Virus genome (UHGV): UHGV-0166849
Source: a virus
Length of the DNA: 11,802 nt
Strand: one strand, 5' to 3'
The notes under the pieces are model-generated. The model was not told where the DNA came from and did not search any database. It was given only the letters and a program-made list of their open reading frames with translations. The position numbers and the translations under genes were made by a program. This document shows, piece after piece, positions 50-10,593 of the stretch. Position 1 is the first letter of the stretch. Every line of letters starts with the position of its first letter.

Positions 50-2995
50 TTAGTGCTTCCCTTCTATTAAGTCTAACCTAGCTTTTATCTTATCCATTTC
101 TCTGCGCTGCCATGCTGCCTCGATATAGAATAAGAGATCAGGTCTGACCCCCCATCTAGATCCTGCTGGCGTTATTTCAACGCGCTCAATGATGTCTTCT
201 ATTACCATCACTGGATTATCATCCTCATCAACAATGATGCTCCCGTCATTATCAGTCAGCGGCATTTCCCTTTGGCCAGTAATGACGTCATCATATACTG
301 CGGGATAATCGTCATAGCAAAGAAAGGCATAGCGGCATGTTGTGCTTTCTTCTTCCATGAGTCCGTGAGAAATAAGAACATCACGAAGTTGCTGCGCGAT
401 TACACCATGATGTATCCTCGCCCCTTCTTCCCCCTTTATAGCGACAGCGTTCAGCCATTTATAAGCGATATACCTGACGTCACCCCAGGCATCCAGCAAT
501 GCTTCGTCAGGAGAGACCGGCTCTGTCTTTAATGTTCCGTCACTGGTAACCACAGGATTGGAGCCAAGATAAACTATCGAGAACCTGTTTCCCGGACCAC
601 CAAGAGCATTTACATTATCAAGATAAGGTTTAACATCTCCGTTCTCAAAAAGATGTTCGAGTGCGTTATATACCGCGCGACGTGGAGTACTGCTTCTGGA
701 ACCATGCAACGTTATCATTGCACCATCTGCTGAAGACGTTGTTTCACCGCCGCTAACGATTAATCTCTGAGCGGTAACATCATCAGACGGTACTTTCTTC
801 GCAATAATGGCGTAATTACCCTCAAGTTTGACTTCCGCGCGAACTTGTCCTGATGTACCTGCATGGACAGTCAGTGACTGGACGGCAACATCATCTGTGA
901 AATCAACGGGTACAGGAACCGTCCTCACGCCTGACGTCGACATAAAAGTAGGAAGCGTTCTGTTAGGAGTGGCTCCGTAGACAAAATCCCTTGAAACAAA
1001 TTCTTCCTGTTTAATTTTCACCCTGAAACAATACAAATCAGCCGGGTGACCATCGTGAACATAAGGATATTTTCTGTTGTTATCCCCTATGCTCCATGGG
1101 TTTAGAAAATCTTCCCCACCGAAAATGTAGTACAGCCAGTTGTCTTTGATACAAACTGAACCAACACCAACCGCAGAGTTAACTATTCCGCCCTGATAAA
1201 TCTGATCAGTAACATTAACCCACTCTACATTATCCAGACTCCACTCATTGACGTTAACTCTGGTCATAAATGTTCTTGGATAATTTCCTGCATAACGGTT
1301 ATCAGGTTCTCCTCCTTCCCACTCACCAAATGCGCGCTCACTGCCAAAAATAACCAGCTCATCGCCAACTTTGGCAAAAGGAAGGTTTGAGTGATGAACA
1401 TTATTTGGGAAGCGAAGAGAATTCCATGATGTACCTAAATCAGAGCTTCTGTGCAATGAACTACCGGGTTGAGTACTTAATGTCCCCCTGGTCGTCAGAT
1501 ACAGAATGCCATCATAATATTTTACACATGGCTCAGATGCATTCGCCTCATATTCTGCAGGTATGCGTCTGCGAACAAAGCTACCAGGAGAACCGAAAGC
1601 ATCAGAGAAATAGAGTATCCCAAGCTCGCGTGGACCAATATCACCATTATGGTAGCCAACAGCAAAACTGTTATCGCTAATCGTCGCAAAACTGTGAATC
1701 TCAGTAACAGGAGTGCTTCCGTCAACAAAAGAAGGAATAGTTCCAAGACTGGTTTTTCTCCATGGTGACGAGTGAAATGATGTGCCAAAACTCCAGTATC
1801 TACCCTCGTTATTCTGATCCACATCCTGGGTATTTTGCGTCGTAACTGTAAAGGTATTTTTATCAATAACAGTAGTCACCGTCATATTCCCGGTAACATC
1901 TGTAACACCAGAGTTTGAGAAGTTGACAAAATCACCAGCAAATAATCCGTGATCAGTAATGCGAATATAAGCGACTTGCTGATTTGCTGCTTTCGTTATA
2001 CCACCATAAACGCGAAGGCTGCGACTCATTGGGCGATCCCACAACTCTGCAACCTGCAGTTTATTTCCTCTCACGGTCCGCGTCTCAATTACAGCAAAAA
2101 GGCGATTTCTGACAACCCCCATACTCATGCAGTGATAGTTAACTGTGGGATAGTTTTCATGTAAATCTGTAAGCCATTCCGGCGTTGTCCAGGTCTTCCC
2201 GTCATCTCCTGAGCGAACCCATGCAACATGGAGGTTATTTACACCATGGCGGTCTCCAGCCATAAAAGGCGCATAGATGACATTGTCATATACAAACGTT
2301 TTATCCTGCGTCCAGGCGTTGTACCACGGTGTATCTGTAATTTTAAATAACTCTCCCTGGATAAAATCTTCAGAAGCATAAAAAAGAGGCTGACCCGGTA
2401 TTCTCTCAAATAAAAAACGAGCATTTTTAAATCGACTGACATCTGGAAGAGTTGATACTTTAAAAGTAAGCCCTCGCCCATCTATCTTTTCACCACCTGT
2501 TGCAACAGAAAGTAATTCTGATAGAGCTGATGTATCATCATGAACACCATCACCAATAGCCCCCCAACCTCTTACATCATAACTGTCTCTCCATCTTGCT
2601 ATCTGAAGTTTTGGGTATTTATTCGCTCCATCTGGGTCTTCTAATTGCCGCCGTAACTGATCAGGATCATACTTCAGCACATTAGGAAAATAAAACTGCT
2701 GTGAACCATATGCATCGTACACAGCCATAGAGTGACCTTGCACAGTTACGAACTTGGCAATCTGTCCGTTATATACCGGATATCCAGCAGCGTTAATGAT
2801 GATTGGTTGCGAAACAGGAACGTGAGAGCCGTCTTCGTTCTCCACATAAGCCTGAATCTGGTTTTCAGGATTTACCGGGTCAGTGTCAATTTTACCGATA
2901 TAAATTTTGCCATTGGCTACAGCTTTAAAAGAACGCGCCATAGTGAAGAGTTGCGAAGGCATGCTGACCACAACATTTGCGGTGATATCTGTCAT
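50..2995 (-). CDS. Tailspike protein (981 aa): P22 gp9-type head-binding N-domain + sialidase-like domain with Asp-boxes + C-terminal intramolecular chaperone-like domain; probable endo-N-acetylneuraminidase (endosialidase)
   Basis: Full-length ORF in track. N-terminus [11 protein letters not shown]...[22 protein letters not shown]...ENEDGSHV...NVLKYDPDQ closely matches my memory of the P22 tailspike head-binding domain. Two Asp-box motifs are read directly: SGDDGKTW (aa 262-269, nt ~2189-2212) and SSDLGTSW (aa 517-524, nt ~1424-1447). The C-terminal ~160 aa (motifs [25 protein letters not shown]) resemble endosialidase/tail-fibre C-terminal chaperone domains. SD GGAG lies 8 nt upstream of the ATG at 2995. 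Confidence 0.85.
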
Positions 2996-3095: not shown

Positions 3096-4019
3096 TCAGT
3101 AGTTATGTACTGAAGGAGGTAATTCTTTGTTCTTAAGTCTTATCCATGCTGAAAGGTTTGTTGGTCCGTCTGGCTCATTAATATCAACATCTCGTGTATG
3201 GTTGATTAAAACATCTCTCGCCATTCCGATAACATACGAGAACTCATAACCGCAGTCATGACATCTGCCGGAATAGTTCGATTGAATTTGTTTCAGCGCC
3301 GGATACAGTTCGCGGAATAATGCCTGTGAGCGGTTGGCATAATCCCATAGCCATACAAGGCTGTTTGCTTCTTTTGCAGAAAGCTCGTTGGTTTTCTTCT
3401 CTTGTTTGCCAATGAACTCACCTTCAAGTGGAACTCGAGCTGCAAGTGATAGTGCTTCGGTAAACTGCTCCTCACTGATTTCTTTGTACGAACATCCAAA
3501 ATGGGATTTCAGTGACGACCACATGGTGATCATCGCCTTAGCCCGTTTTTCTTTTGGCAGAGACTGACCGCGACTCATGACGAGTTGTTTAATGGCTTCC
3601 TGCTGTTCAGTGGTGATTTTACCCGGCAACGCCTTTTTAGCTTTGCGTGGGTTAACTACATAGCCTTTAGTCCAGTACTCGTAGAGCACATCGTCACACT
3701 CTTCCTGATACTGGATTACCTTGTCGCGGATTTCAGGGCGGACTTTGTTTGGCTGAATGCTTGAAAGCCAAGCCGCAAACTTACGAAAGGCAAGGCATAT
3801 CATTAACTGTTTACCGCCAGCAGAAGGTATTTCGATTTCCGAAATACCTTTGACAAATCTCTGTTTTAATTTAACAAATTGAGCAGCCCAAACCATACCC
3901 ATGCCTTCTACAACGGGTTTCATAGGAACGTAAGGTTCATTGTTAATGCTGACCAAAAAGAGATTTGTTCCGTGGAATGGAACGTTGATTGTATGTTCTG
4001 CAATTGCTACACTCGTCAT
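3096..4019 (-). CDS. ant: Antirepressor Ant (307 aa), AntA/Bro-N-like N-terminal domain
   Basis: ORF in track. Sits downstream of arc and upstream of the tailspike, as in P22 immI. N-terminal region (..VPFHGTNLFLV...PMKPVVEGMGMVWAAQ..KL) looks like phage antirepressor N-domains. SD AGGA ~8 nt upstream of the ATG at 4019. Confidence 0.75.
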   Translation of the reverse strand: MTSVAIAEHTINVPFHGTNLFLVSINNEPYVPMKPVVEGMGMVWAAQFVKLKQRFVKGISEIEIPSAGGKQLMICLAFRKFAAWLSSIQPNKVRPEIRDKVIQYQEECDDVLYEYWTKGYVVNPRKAKKALPGKITTEQQEAIKQLVMSRGQSLPKEKRAKAMITMWSSLKSHFGCSYKEISEEQFTEALSLAARVPLEGEFIGKQEKKTNELSAKEANSLVWLWDYANRSQALFRELYPALKQIQSNYSGRCHDCGYEFSYVIGMARDVLINHTRDVDINEPDGPTNLSAWIRLKNKELPPSVHNY

Positions 4020-4090
4020 GTCGTTAATTCCTATGCGTGGTTTTACGATACCGAAGCCCTGACTGTTCCCGCAGTTGGGGCTTCACTGTT
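4020..4090 (+). ncRNA. Candidate sar-like antisense RNA (~70 nt) complementary to the ant RBS and start region
   Basis: Plus-strand promoter-like hexamers inside the 5' end of ant: TTGATT (3985-3990), 17-bp spacer, TACACT (4008-4013), placing a start near 4020. Downstream is an imperfect hairpin GAAGCCC...GGGCTTC (about 4051-4081) followed by TTTTT (4085-4089). This matches the known P22 arrangement of sar RNA opposite the ant RBS. Prediction from sequence only. Confidence 0.3.
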
Positions 4091-5573: not shown

Positions 5574-5753
5574 ATGGCGAAAAAACCAGGTGAAAACACA
5601 GGAAAAAACGGCGGAATATACCAAGAAGTTGGCCCACGCGGCGGTAAGAAAGACAATTTTGCAACCGTCAAGGACAACGAAAGGCTTCCACCAACAACAA
5701 AGCCAGGTCATGGCTGGGTATTGGATAAGCGAACTCCAGACAGCAAAAAGTAA
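5574..5753 (+). CDS. Hypothetical small basic protein (59 aa; alternative start at 5559 gives 64 aa)
   Basis: ORF in track. SD GAGG (5564-5567) 6 nt upstream of the ATG at 5574. Gly/Lys/Pro-rich sequence MAKKPGENTGKNGGIYQEVGPRGGKK...LPPTTKPGHGWVLD. I have a vague sense this resembles a conserved small-protein family but cannot name it. Confidence 0.55.
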   Translation: MAKKPGENTGKNGGIYQEVGPRGGKKDNFATVKDNERLPPTTKPGHGWVLDKRTPDSKK

Positions 5754-5766
5754 TACTCAAGCCGGG

Positions 5767-6132
5767 TCACTCCGGCTTTTTGATATGTCGCTCGCAGAAC
5801 TCAACAAGCCTGCTCATTAAGTAGCAGTAAGTCTCATTGGCTCTTCCTGGTTCAACATCAACACCGACCCTTGAGCAGATATCGAATGCCATGTGAGCGC
5901 ACTCATGGGCAATAGTAGATAGTTTGCCATTGAACACGCCTATCACATGCAAAACACCATTCTCGCTGCTCATTGTATGAGACGCTCCGTTGGCGTCCGA
6001 GTCATGCACGTCAACGCCAAGTTTTTGATGCAGGCGTTGCCATTCTGGAAAGTCTCTACAAAACACAATTGTACCGCTCTCAAAGAGCGGAACGAGCATC
6101 TTTGGTACGTTTCCAATGTTAACTTTTTTCAT
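5767..6132 (-). CDS. Hypothetical HExxH-motif protein (121 aa); candidate mini zinc-metallopeptidase
   Basis: ORF in track starts at a TTG at 6171. I prefer the first ATG at 6132, which has SD AGGA ~5 nt upstream. Contains HECAH (aa 76-80) with Glu residues 14 and 20 aa downstream, consistent with a zincin HExxH...E arrangement. The overlapping plus-strand translation looks non-protein-like. Confidence 0.55.
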   Translation of the reverse strand: MKKVNIGNVPKMLVPLFESGTIVFCRDFPEWQRLHQKLGVDVHDSDANGASHTMSSENGVLHVIGVFNGKLSTIAHECAHMAFDICSRVGVDVEPGRANETYCYLMSRLVEFCERHIKKPE

Positions 6133-6162
6133 GGTATCCTGCTCAAAACTAAGGAGCTTGGT

Positions 6163-6552
6163 GTGAAGCAATTTCTTGCTGCTATGTTCTTATTCATATC
6201 TTTTGGGGCTACAGCAGAGTGCTGGGTCGTTGGAGATATGCGCGGAATAAGCTATTCAGAACGAAATAATTTCCATCCGGAAGAAGATGGTTTTAGTGGA
6301 ACATTCATCATTAAGACAAGCGGTGAAGATGCCAGCATCACATATTCTGGGACAGATGCGGGCGGCATGGCTTACAAAGCATTGTCTAAAAACTCCATCA
6401 TAGGAATCGGCGCGAATGGCGAAACTCAACGCGTTATCGACTCATGGGTAATACATCCTACTGGAACAGTTTTAATGTCAAAAACCATTTCTGGTTATGG
6501 GAATATGGATTCAACCAAAGCTTTTGTTGGAAAAGTAAAAAGAAAATGTTAA
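6163..6552 (+). CDS. Hypothetical secreted/periplasmic protein (129-aa precursor) with Sec signal peptide
   Basis: Start re-called to the GTG at 6163, with SD AAGGAG (6151-6156) 6 nt upstream. N-terminus MKQFLAAMFLFISFGATA|ECW has an n-h-c signal-peptide layout with an A-x-A cleavage site. The predicted mature protein has one Cys at residue 2 and one as the C-terminal residue. No lipobox. Opposite orientation to the late operon, at the position P22 uses for sieA. Confidence 0.6.
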   Translation: MKQFLAAMFLFISFGATAECWVVGDMRGISYSERNNFHPEEDGFSGTFIIKTSGEDASITYSGTDAGGMAYKALSKNSIIGIGANGETQRVIDSWVIHPTGTVLMSKTISGYGNMDSTKAFVGKVKRKC

Positions 6553-6576
6553 CGATTGAATCCAATTCCCCATACG

Positions 6577-8418
6577 TTACTGCTGTGTTGCCTCAGTAGC
6601 AAGCAGCGGCCTGATGGCATTTGCAGCGTTACTCAACGCTCTTTCATAGGCTGGTGTTCCTGCTTTGGTGTTTGCCAGACGTAAGAGCGCATTCCTTGCT
6701 GCTTTGGACTCATACAAGCGCATCATTGCACCGAAACCAGCCTCAAGCCCCATTGATACGCCAAGAGTCGCAGTTGCGCCAATCGTCCTTATCCTGTTGG
6801 CTTGCGATTGCCCCGTCTGAGTTACTACATTTGCGGTGTCTGACCTTGCTGTTTGCTGCAGAACTTCATGAAGAGCATCAAGTTCTTTCATGTGCTTTCC
6901 AGAAAAAATAGTGTTGTAAATTTCACCGCCTGACTGAGATTTCAGCTTATTAACTTCAGTGATGAACTTGGCTGGAGAGTCACCGGCCTTTTCCGCTATT
7001 TTGCTGACGTAAGCTGCACGCATAGCATCTTTCCCTTTATCATCCAGTGCGCTCCAGATTCGTTTCACGTCAGATGGTTTTCTGCTTAATACAACGGTAT
7101 TTATAAGTTCAGGACTGGCTTCACTGCTTGCCTTGTTGAGTTTGTTAGCAATGTTTTTATTAAGCACCTTATTATAAACGTTTGCATAATCGGAATTTGC
7201 TTTAAGGTATTTTGCTGCGTCTGATGCACCGAGGTTTTTAGCAACTGCGTTACGAAGGTCTTTTGACATTGCATTCTCTACCATATTGGTAGCTGCTTTT
7301 GCCTGGTTGGGGAAGACCATAGCATCTCCCTGAACATTAGATCTAAATGCTGTTCTGTGCTGACGCAAGAGATCAAACGTAACATCCAAATCAGTTGCAG
7401 GGTTTGCTAATTCTTCACGTAGGTTACGCAAGGATGTAAGCAGGCTTTGATTGGCAGACGTCCCAAGTCGTTCCTGTCTTGCGATCGCTGTATTCAGAGC
7501 ATTCATGGTATTTGTGGTATCAACTGCGGCATTACCCATTTTATTGGTGACGTCATTGATAACAGCGCCAGCGGCATCCTTCCTCCCCCTTAACGTGGTG
7601 GTCAGAGATTTCACCACATCATCAGGGTTGTACTCACCAAAACGGTCAAAATAATTACTTACCAGCTTACTACGCGTTGCATATTGCTCCGCTCGCTTTG
7701 AGCCTGTCCCGAGCAAAGCCCCCTCGGCATCCTGAGTAAGGCCGCGAGTGAAAGCATTTTTCGGCGGGATAACATCAGATGTCATTGGTGTCACGCCCAT
7801 CGATTCTGATGTGGCAATTTTCTTCGCCACTTCTGGCGCAATATCACCTTTTATAGCCGTTATTCCACGCCCTATTCCCTTTGCTGCGGCGGAAAGAACA
7901 CCCTGAGCGGCAAGGTTAACTCCGGCATTTTTAGCTGCATTTTGTGCGAAATCGCCTTTCTGATTTGCGGCCTCTGCCAGTGATCCAATAGCCATGCTTC
8001 CTGCCGTTCCAACTCCTGGAACTAAATACCCACCAATTGTTTCACCGGCTTGTGCGTAGGGGTCTGTCGGTCTGTCTACTGGACGATAAACATCATCCAA
8101 AACCTTGGGTCCACCAAGCCCCTGACTGATTGCATTAATCAGACTTGCGCCACCCTGCAATACGTCAAATGGTATGTTTACCAGACCACGACCAGCCTGT
8201 TCTGCAATTTGCTCTGCACTTTGACCACCAGTGAGCCAATCGCCAGCTTGTTGCATCAATGATGGTTCTTCCCGTGTTGGTGCATTATTGGCCTGATTAA
8301 CTGTTTGTTGCTGAACAGCCTGACCAGCAAAATACTCATCAATGGCGGTGCCAATATCTTCGGTGCTCGTACCATCAGGAAAGGTAAATGTCTTACCGTT
8401 TGCAGTTACTTTCATCAT
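6577..8418 (-). CDS. Ejection (pilot) protein, P22 gp16-like (about 612 aa)
   Basis: ORF in track. Size and position (last gene of the gp7-gp20-gp16 series, immediately before the immI/accessory region) match P22 gene 16. Its start overlaps the gp20-like stop (ATGA). Confidence 0.8.
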
Positions 8419-9890
8419 TCCACCGTAAATTGAATGCCTGATTTTGAGGTATATGATCCGGATTGACTCTGCTGCTGTTGGGTATTTGTCGGTTGTTGGC
8501 TATTGCTCTGTTGTTGACTATTTGCAGCACTTGAAACCACCAAAGCATCATAAACGCGACCAGACTGACCACGTAATGAGTTATATTGGCCCTGCATTTT
8601 TCGCATTTTTGTTTCAGTAGCAGCCTTGGAATCACCGGGCTGAGGGAGGTACATTTTGGAATACTCCTGCATCTCTGGCAGAGTAATTGCTGCACCTGTT
8701 TCTGGGCGCAAAATTGCATACAAGGCGTCTCTCGCATTTACCATATATTGCTGCTCCGCTGGTGATAGGCTTAAATTTGCAATAGTTCCATCACCAAGAG
8801 AGCGATTTATTAATGCAACTCGCTTAGGGTCAATGCTTTTACTAAGCTGATTCATTGAGTCCATTGAATCTTTTAATCGCAAAGCAAATCCCGCCGCCTT
8901 CTTGGAACCCTCATTAGCCTTATCTATGATGCTTTGCGCTTGTGGCAAGCTAATTGGTTTAATGCCATCACCAGATATAGGTTGGTTTAGTTTTCCGGCT
9001 TCCTCGCTGCCATCGGTGTAATACTTAGTTACCGAGCCATCAGGATTGGTTTCAACCTTAAGTAATTTCTTAGCATTGGGATTAATTCCCGCCGCTGCCG
9101 CAAATGCCGCTGCACCATCTGGATCTACCTTTAACATTTGCGCGTACTGATTGTAATTCTGCATTGCGGCTGTTGGTGCATATGCTGACGTTAACGCATT
9201 TGCTCGGCTAATATCCTGCCCTCTCGCCTGAAGTGCTTCACCAGCCTGATTGCTGCGGATTGTCTCTGCCAGTCTGCCTCGGTCAATTTCACGACCAGCC
9301 ATCTTGTCCTGAACAGCAAACGCCTTTTCTGGTCCAAGCGCACCGAGAGACATAGTAGTCAGCATGTGTGATAGCTGCTCTGGATTCTGGATACCTGTCT
9401 GAATCATCCAGTCAGCATTCGCCCCCACGCGATTTAACCTGTCCTTGTTGTCAGTAATGAATTTACTGTAGGCTTCCGGTCCCTGAGAAAGAGCGACGTT
9501 AGCTCTCATGGCTAAATCGCCCATATCGTTGCGTTGCTGATCATTAAGACCTGAAAACGCCTGTTGTGCCTGTGCAACAAACGCTGGATTTTCCTGGGCA
9601 AACTTAAATAGTCCCGATGGATCACCAGAAGCCCATGCATCAGCATGAACCTTATTGAACGCACTAATCGCTTTCTGTTGCTGTTCCTGATTGTAAATAT
9701 CAGCAACTCCAGCCAGACCACGTAACGCGGTCAGACCAACGTTATTTGTACCTGAGCGAGCCAGTTCATTGTTTTCGCGGATCAGACCAAGCGTTGCGTT
9801 AATGTCGCTTGCCTTTGGCGCATTCTCATTTTGCGTACCGATGCCAGCCAGAAAACCACCAGAATTAATACCCTGTTGCCAATTAGCCAT
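8415..9890 (-). CDS. Ejection protein, P22 gp20-like (491 aa)
   Basis: ORF in track. Position between the gp7-like and gp16-like genes. Gln/Ala/Gly-rich. Size close to P22 gp20 (about 471 aa as I recall). Confidence 0.8.
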
Positions 9891-9900
9891 TGATTACCCC

Positions 9901-10593
9901 TTAAAACAGCGAACCAAGCAGACCAAGACCAGCACCGATACCAGCACCCCACGGAGTTGATAGCTCGAGAGCACTGGCTATACCACCACCCAAAAGCGCA
10001 CCGGATGCAGCACCACTAACACCCTGCCGCAATGCTGACGGTCGGTTGGCGTTTGCCGCCGCCAGCGCCGCGCTTTGCTGTGAAATCTGACTCATGTTGT
10101 TGGCATATGTTTGCCCGGCGTTTGCCTGCCCCTGAAGAGCGCCAAGACCGATATTTGCCAGGTTGTTGTAATTGTTCATTTGTCCAGACAGCCATTGCTG
10201 ACCAAGCGTTGGTGCGATTGTTGCTAACTGATTACTGGTTGCGGTGGAACCCAATCCACCTGTTGCTTCCGCTGCCGCCAGACTCTGATAGCGAGCCTGA
10301 CCAGCAAGATCTTTGTACTGCTGAGAGTTGTAATACTGGTTAAGTGCCTGACCTTGCCCTTCCAGAGACGATAAGTTCTCAAGGCTGCCGACATACTTCC
10401 CAGCCAGAGGAGTAAACGGCTTCAGGTTGTTCATGATGGTGTTGAACTGCTGATTTTGCAGGTCTGCGGCATACTTCTGAGCTTCTGCGGCATACTTTGC
10501 ACTTTTATCAGAACTGCCACCTTTCCCGCCTTTTTCAGGGCAATAAGGTTCCTCGCCGCGCAGTTTTCTGCCCAGCTTAAATGCATATAACAT
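9901..10593 (-). CDS. Ejection protein, P22 gp7-like (230 aa)
   Basis: ORF in track. Size matches P22 gp7 (about 229 aa). N-terminus MLYAF.LGRKLRGEEP and a Gly/Ala-rich hydrophobic C-terminus. Separated by 2 nt from the upstream gp14-like stop. Confidence 0.8.
   Translation of the reverse strand: MLYAFKLGRKLRGEEPYCPEKGGKGGSSDKSAKYAAEAQKYAADLQNQQFNTIMNNLKPFTPLAGKYVGSLENLSSLEGQGQALNQYYNSQQYKDLAGQARYQSLAAAEATGGLGSTATSNQLATIAPTLGQQWLSGQMNNYNNLANIGLGALQGQANAGQTYANNMSQISQQSAALAAANANRPSALRQGVSGAASGALLGGGIASALELSTPWGAGIGAGLGLLGSLF

Follow-up and report, generated by a model that had tools for sequence, protein, structure and literature searches.

A predicted exported homologue of phage 434 Hex in the sieA position of a CUS-3/P22-like prophage, a candidate superinfection exclusion protein

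To our knowledge, the mechanism of superinfection exclusion in P22-like phages has been worked out for SieA only, and we know of no study of what the sieA slot contains in those phages that lack the gene. Such phages are common, as sieA is absent from about two thirds of sequenced P22-like phages (PMC10883804). What, then, stands in this slot when sieA does not, and what might its product do? We addressed this question for a gene at positions 6163-6552 of UHGV virus genome UHGV-0166849, a stretch of 11,802 nucleotides that is called the window here. The window is a mosaic CUS-3/P22-like prophage with its late genes on the minus strand. Its best phage match is CUS-3, at 96% identity over only 58% of the window, and the endosialidase domains of the tailspike make it a K1-capsule-specific, CUS-3-like phage. 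The features discussed below are as follows.

50-2995, minus strand: tailspike that joins a P22-type head-binding domain to endosialidase domains and an S74 chaperone
3096-4019, minus strand: ant-like gene
4021-4087, plus strand: sar antisense RNA (immI region; Rfam RF00262, 76.6 bits, E 5.8e-15), immediately 5' of the ant-like gene
5767-6132, minus strand: conserved 121-aa ORF in the direction of the late operon (phrog_1365, E 1.7e-39)
6078-6162, plus strand: upstream 85 bp, 83/85 identical to P22, with a putative PsieA equivalent at 6102-6132 (from the P22-pbi annotation)
6151-6156, plus strand: Shine-Dalgarno sequence AAGGAG, 6 nt before the GTG, in a block of about 33 bp common to P22, Emek and the window
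6163-6552, plus strand: coding sequence of the Hex-family protein, 129 codons plus TAA (phrog_2651, E 9.2e-61)
6163-6165 and 6550-6552, plus strand: GTG start codon and TAA stop codon, from the sequence
6163-6216, plus strand: predicted Sec signal peptide, residues 1-18, with hydrophobic core and A-T-A before the putative cleavage site
6217-6549, plus strand: mature domain of 111 aa, with Cys at its positions 2 and 111 and predicted to form a small up-and-down beta-barrel
6577-8418, minus strand: gene 16 ejection (DNA transfer) protein, 75% identical to P22 gp16, convergent and 24 bp downstream
8415-9890, minus strand: gp20
9901-10593, minus strand: gp7

The start codon was assessed against 80 loci from an IMG/VR scan, which encode relatives of the window protein at 88-99% identity. 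Translation of 6163-6552 gives a product of 129 aa, MKQFLAAMFLFISFGATA-ECWVVGDMRG...FVGKVKRKC. An earlier reading, made from the sequence only, had proposed a strong Shine-Dalgarno sequence followed by a GTG start, and this arrangement, with an AAGGAG(G)-type motif, is kept in 68 of the 80 loci. In 12 of them there is an ATG at the same codon, together with another signal peptide (MKLIIAMAFLVFSFSVSA, MKLIIAMAF...) and unrelated upstream DNA. Since GTG or ATG occurs at the same codon across all 80 loci, the start is fixed, and the extension back to the ATG at 5947 is not conserved. Position 5947 is the first ATG after a stop, and the ORF listed from it has 201 codons, 72 more than from 6163; these extra codons overlap the conserved minus-strand ORF at 5767-6132, so the longer ORF is the artefact of antisense overlap that the earlier reading took it to be. 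Among 36 distinct alleles, pN/pS was 0.27 for the whole gene. It was 0.137 in the mature part, where third codon positions made up 30 of the 44 variable sites, and 0.59 in the signal peptide, which is under relaxed constraint. The gene at 6163-6552 is real and its start codon is correct.

Of 5,426 complete E. coli genomes, 147 carry the gene, on the chromosome every time, and it also occurs in the Salmonella phages Emek (orf129) and ST-35. RefSeq/PGAP places the start at Met8 (122 aa) in E. coli O111 11128 (L012 4052-4420) and at Met26 (104 aa) in strain 631 (L013 4027-4341), with the 129-aa ORF intact in both. The signal peptide is thus partly or wholly missing from public protein records, which may explain why export of these proteins went unnoticed.

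The gene lies opposite to the late operon, as had been noted before, and is convergent with gene 16. The two stop codons are 24 bp apart (6553-6576) and no terminator-like hairpin was found in this gap. Transcription from either side should continue antisense into the opposite gene. Convergent gp16 follows the gene in about 77 of the 80 IMG/VR loci, and relatives at 52% and 41% identity are likewise convergent with a P22_gp16-family gene. We considered whether the gp16 allele of the window is uniquely tied to the gene, which is ruled out by adjoining gp16 genes that are 55-100% identical to it. Upstream neighbours in these loci fall into at least five arrangements. In the window, the ATG of the minus-strand ORF at 5767-6132 is just 30 bp from the GTG, which places the equivalent of P22 PsieA inside the coding sequence of that ORF. 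The P22 DNA homologous to this ORF carries no annotated gene in the P22-pbi record.

P22 and the window are identical at 456 of 466 bp over window positions 5700-6165 and are unrelated beyond the GTG. The P22-identical stretch spans the annotated t-mnt terminator, the putative PsieA promoter, the Shine-Dalgarno sequence and the sieA GTG. Identity that runs through the start codon and then gives way to a different coding sequence means that the window gene replaces sieA exactly. In P22, sieA with 85 bp of upstream DNA, placed in galK, sufficed for exclusion (PMC10883804), which makes expression of the window gene in the lysogen plausible. Transcription in the lysogen would probably come from the P22-type sieA upstream region that the window has kept. 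A simple consensus scan gave no strong sigma-70 match upstream of the gene, PsieA included. In Emek, only the block of about 33 bp before the start is common with P22 and the window, and the DNA further upstream is different.

The product has the same slot between genes 16 and 9 as P22 SieA, the same upstream region, Shine-Dalgarno sequence and GTG, and a predicted envelope location, and exclusion of P22-like phages at DNA delivery would be the role expected here as well. The two proteins are otherwise unlike. SieA (types A-C) has no sequence similarity to the window protein and belongs to phrog_7745 rather than phrog_2651, and it is a multi-pass inner-membrane protein of 164 aa, whereas the window protein looks like a soluble exported barrel, in whose mature part no 10-residue Kyte-Doolittle mean exceeds 1.2 and in which no hydrophobic segment follows the signal peptide. 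We rejected a SieA homologue on account of the different PHROG and the lack of a transmembrane stretch in the mature part. The slot in CUS-3 is occupied by hkcB (L011 6204-6527) and not by the window gene; in HkcB, a coiled coil follows a hydrophobic N-terminal segment. Other genes in or beside the sieA slot are, judging by their sequences, also envelope proteins. In one locus (L009 2002-2454), the product of a 150-aa upstream gene contains an LSGC lipobox and weakly matches the Cor exclusion PHROG.

The N-terminus of the window protein has the features of a typical Sec signal peptide before A-T-A, in line with the sequence-only reading. It contains one n-region Lys and an 11-residue hydrophobic core, with A-T-A at -3 to -1, and the best 10-residue Kyte-Doolittle mean is 2.52 in the core against at most 1.2 anywhere in the mature part. 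The second, unrelated signal-peptide variant found in 12 of the 80 loci joins at the same position. The mature part has 111 aa, 11.9 kDa and a pI of 7.0, and the description of two cysteines only, at mature position 2 and at the last residue, proved accurate. Export and cleavage are very likely on these features. A lipoprotein of the Cor or Llp type was rejected; the junction reads A-T-A-E-C, and Glu before Cys does not fit a lipobox.

Structure prediction, proposed earlier as a check, gave a small beta-barrel. The AlphaFold2 model (13 sequences; mean pLDDT 86.5, pTM 0.76) shows nine strand elements over residues 19-128 and is free of helix past the signal peptide, and the predicted fold is a small up-and-down beta-barrel. 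A barrel of this kind should have its first strand (19-32) antiparallel to its last (117-128), which would bring Cys20 near Cys129, and a disulfide between these two residues (mature 2-111) may therefore tie the termini together. Foldseek against PDB and BFVD gave E >0.001 and TM-score <0.5 for all matches listed, and these were generic small barrels only. The lysozyme inhibitors PliC/MliC and Ivy, with which comparison had been advised, did not emerge as relatives, as no such Pfam model was matched by any of 65 members of the wider family, and the fold match to MliC/PliC and Ivy was weaker than that to unrelated generic barrels.

Homology provided a more specific lead. In a tblastn search of phage genomes, full-length matches at 27% identity were found in 434, lambda imm434, Sf6 (gene 38), HK446, HK633 and Sf101. 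The 434 gene is annotated as "repressor protection protein", which is Hex, and the annotations of 434 and Sf6 place the gene directly after the position of the 434-type cI repressor. A profile of the window protein's close relatives matched the 134-aa Hex with 60.5 bits (E 1.4e-11 in 1.8 billion proteins), in an alignment that runs end to end and includes both cysteines. Both proteins match PHROG 2651 (Hex at E 1.4e-58), which is unannotated for function. By these comparisons the window protein is almost certainly a distant full-length homologue of 434 Hex and a member of the Hex family. The two are alike in having a signal peptide, a junction of the A-x-A-x-C-W type and a C-terminus of the F-V-G-x-V-x-G-x-C type, and both are prophage accessory genes that are probably expressed in the lysogen. 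The window gene belongs to the phage group of which P22 is the type, and P22 is also the phage that Hex is reported to exclude. The two genes differ in location: hex follows cI directly in the PRM operon, and all 79 viral loci of the Hex clade show a 4-bp overlap with the cI stop, whereas the window gene occupies the sieA slot, between genes 16 and 9, and does not belong to a cI/PRM transcript. Position after cI is a feature of the locus and not of the protein family. What appears to be new is the link between an occupant of the sieA slot and Hex; on sequence comparison, the window gene is a differently placed member of the Hex family rather than a new kind of system.

An exhaustive profile search recovered 126 cluster representatives of this family (50% identity, E <=1e-3), nearly all of 120-145 aa. 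Statistics were taken over 110 full-length representatives. The first Cys is present in every one, as is a hydrophobic core in the N-terminus (lowest value 2.05). The residue two before this Cys is Ala in 82, Ser in 14, Gly in 3 and Thr in 3, and the residue four before it is Ala, Ser, Val or Thr in 92. Immediately before the Cys stands E, Q, D, N or K in 72 of the 110, which argues against a lipobox for the family as well. The mature part contains two cysteines in 45 representatives and four in 62 (107 of 110 with either number), and the last Cys is aligned in 90, lying 0-4 residues from the C-terminus in 82 of these. Even numbers of cysteines and a variable, replaceable signal peptide are as expected for proteins that fold in the periplasm. 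The window protein has the architecture that characterises the family, with a signal peptide, Cys-aromatic after the cleavage site and a C-terminus of the G-x-C type.

Named members come from E. coli, Salmonella, Serratia, Pantoea, Cronobacter, Citrobacter, Yersinia, Enterobacter, Klebsiella and Aeromonas, and all are called hypothetical. There is no Pfam model for the family; the 65 members searched gave two isolated, unrelated weak matches, in one member each, and the window protein had no match in Pfam (E <=0.01), NCBIfam or PADLOC. A profile search of PDB sequences returned nothing, and neither did two scans of genome contigs. Prophage members in Citrobacter, Yersinia and Enterobacter (56-59% identity) lie directly after a repressor with HTH and Peptidase_S24 domains, overlapping it by 4 bp in two cases and separated by a 5-bp gap in the third. 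Among the more distant members, some occur in Aeromonas, in accessory regions of mobile elements, and others in small chromosomal islets. One distant member, P0150 (L007 8001-8405), lies in a type VI secretion system (T6SS) cluster, between tssB and a Tle1-like effector with three DUF2931 genes. Its close relative P0151 (L094) is found singly in a chromosome, next to a HigBA-like pair and away from any T6SS genes. Such members outside prophages suggest that the Hex family may lack one single function.

The function published for Hex is a different one from that suggested by export. Lysogens of lambda imm434 in Salmonella exclude P22 and hex- lysogens do not, according to the account of Susskind and Botstein (1980) given in PMC3564112, and we found no further literature on Hex exclusion beyond that paper and its cited 1980 source. 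The conclusion of PMC3564112 was that Hex keeps lysogeny stable, in that it prevents the repressors of 434 and P22 from being cleaved under stimulation by RecA. The paper contains no mention of export, signal peptide, membrane or periplasm, and its Hex ORF has 158 codons, that is, the 134 aa plus 24 codons from an ATG inside cI (434, L003 2429-2905). Overexpressed full-length Hex was toxic and stopped culture growth (PMC3564112). The only stable fragment, sHex, starts at Glu43 of the 158-aa ORF, which is Glu19 of the 134-aa Hex (its DNA starts GAATGCTGG), and this is the first residue after the predicted cleavage site A-N-S|E-C-W in Hex. It ends at Asn79 and so comprises about the first five of nine predicted strands and no partner Cys. 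The toxicity, the start at E-C-W and the half barrel are all compatible with export of Hex.

If the published mechanism held for the family, the window protein would be a cytoplasmic repressor binder that blocks RecA-stimulated autocleavage and stabilises lysogeny. We consider this very improbable for the window protein. The case for it is experimental, as spontaneous induction rose 30-fold in a recA-dependent manner when hex was replaced, and sHex inhibited cleavage of the 434 and P22 repressors in vitro (PMC3564112). It is also consistent with the invariable place of the Hex clade directly after an S24 repressor, with the 4-bp overlap in all 79 loci and in two of the three prophages of other genera. 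However, rexAB and 933W stk, which are likewise exclusion genes expressed in lysogens, also follow cI directly (PMC3564112), so this location alone does not imply a function related to the repressor, and the window gene is in any case unlinked to a repressor. The hex allele was a replacement by a cat cassette just 3' of cI (PMC3564112), which might itself alter cI expression, and the inhibitory fragment was a partial barrel purified through GuHCl (PMC3564112). The family has a conserved cleavable signal peptide and paired cysteines, and a cytoplasmic role with RecA and repressor would fit poorly with a protein predicted to be exported. The sequence-only reading had held that a homologue with a known unrelated function would count against it. 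Hex is such a homologue in so far as its published role is concerned, yet that role is ill-suited to export, and the proposal that a periplasmic prophage protein acts on incoming phage or on the envelope gains independent support from the sieA slot and from the homology to 434 Hex.

Among explanations that accept export, it is unlikely that the window protein is a periplasmic immunity protein or inhibitor directed at an envelope-acting toxin (T6SS effector, bacteriocin or lytic enzyme, for example), which would guard the lysogen against competing bacteria rather than against phages. Small disulfide-bonded periplasmic barrels are a frequent format of inhibitors, one distant family member stands in the T6SS cluster described above, and in 12 of the 80 loci a homologue of the Rap1a-family T6SS immunity proteins (PF18602, 55 bits) is encoded directly upstream, in the mnt operon (L013 3601-3936). 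In strain 631 (L013) this arrangement coincides with the ATG start and MKLIIAMAF signal peptide, which are likewise found in 12 loci. Against this explanation, an effector partner is not apparent, no T6SS genes lie near the close relative of the T6SS-cluster member, the 65 family members resemble no Pfam immunity or inhibitor family, and PADLOC gave no match for the window protein. The sole phenotype reported for the family, as far as the account in PMC3564112 extends, is phage exclusion. Membership in the Rap1a/Tai group of T6SS immunity proteins was rejected, as hhalign gave a probability of 5%, over the signal peptide only. A miniature outer-membrane beta-barrel of the Lom, Ail, OmpX or PagP kind, altering the cell surface, is also highly unlikely. 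Soluble barrels (Cap15, NHBA, avidins) score equally in the fold comparison, and the C-terminus is K-R-K-C without a terminal aromatic beta-signal. The mature part carries 12 K/R and 12 D/E, or 24 charged residues in 111 aa, and in the predicted strands, read by eye, the face opposite the small-residue face carries charged residues, all of which points to a soluble rather than an outer-membrane barrel. No Pfam model of outer-membrane proteins was matched, and outer-membrane barrels such as OmpX, Ail and Lom were rejected on these grounds.

The function we favour, with moderate confidence, is exclusion of superinfecting phages at the envelope, which is the most likely role in view of the sieA slot, the phenotype reported for Hex and the envelope nature of the other slot occupants. 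Prophage-encoded, exported proteins that block phage entry from the periplasmic side are known in P1 Sim, phi80 and N15 Cor, T5 Llp and TP-J34 Ltp, of which Cor, Llp and Ltp are lipoproteins. The window protein is like these in its prophage origin and predicted export, and no homology to them is expected. We propose that a transcript begun in the P22-type sieA upstream region would be made in the lysogen, that its translation from the GTG at 6163 would give a 129-aa precursor, and that Sec would export this precursor for cleavage after Ala18. In the periplasm, the mature 111 aa would then fold as a small soluble up-and-down beta-barrel, in which a disulfide between mature Cys 2 and Cys 111 staples the first and last strands, and this barrel would exclude superinfecting P22-like or other phages at the cell envelope. 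The likeliest route would be binding to the ejection-protein conduit, to the tail tip or to a host envelope factor that the phages need. As to the specific step, our guess is that the protein may block passage of DNA or the ejection conduit through the periplasm or mask a host envelope factor, and this we would sooner expect to see revised than confirmed. Taken whole, an exported Hex-family exclusion protein that blocks entry at the envelope is the best explanation for this locus, though we regard its being right in every part as an evenly balanced proposition. The window gene is a concrete candidate for the exclusion function in P22-like prophages without sieA, and an exported Hex family calls into question the only published mechanism for Hex and gives reason to re-examine where Hex acts.

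A broader and more speculative proposal, possible rather than probable, is that the Hex family is an unrecognised and widespread class of disulfide-stapled periplasmic mini-barrels that block genome delivery and occupy two lysogeny slots, and that the RecA mechanism is an artefact. The class would then span about 126 clusters at 50% identity in Enterobacterales and Aeromonas with no Pfam model, the published RecA/repressor mechanism would have arisen from a mis-called start codon and a half-barrel fragment, and paralogues of different specificity would sit in the post-cI and sieA slots, sometimes in the same prophage. Both kinds of gene are found together in the 41-kb IMG/VR contig 648276644_000012, where a gene 96% identical to Hex beside cI is accompanied by a gp16-adjacent paralogue (L068, L160), which suggests that the two are not redundant. 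Hex and the window gene are thus paralogues, probably with different targets. The source genomes 2630968558 and 2778261564 also contain both paralogues, on separate contigs.
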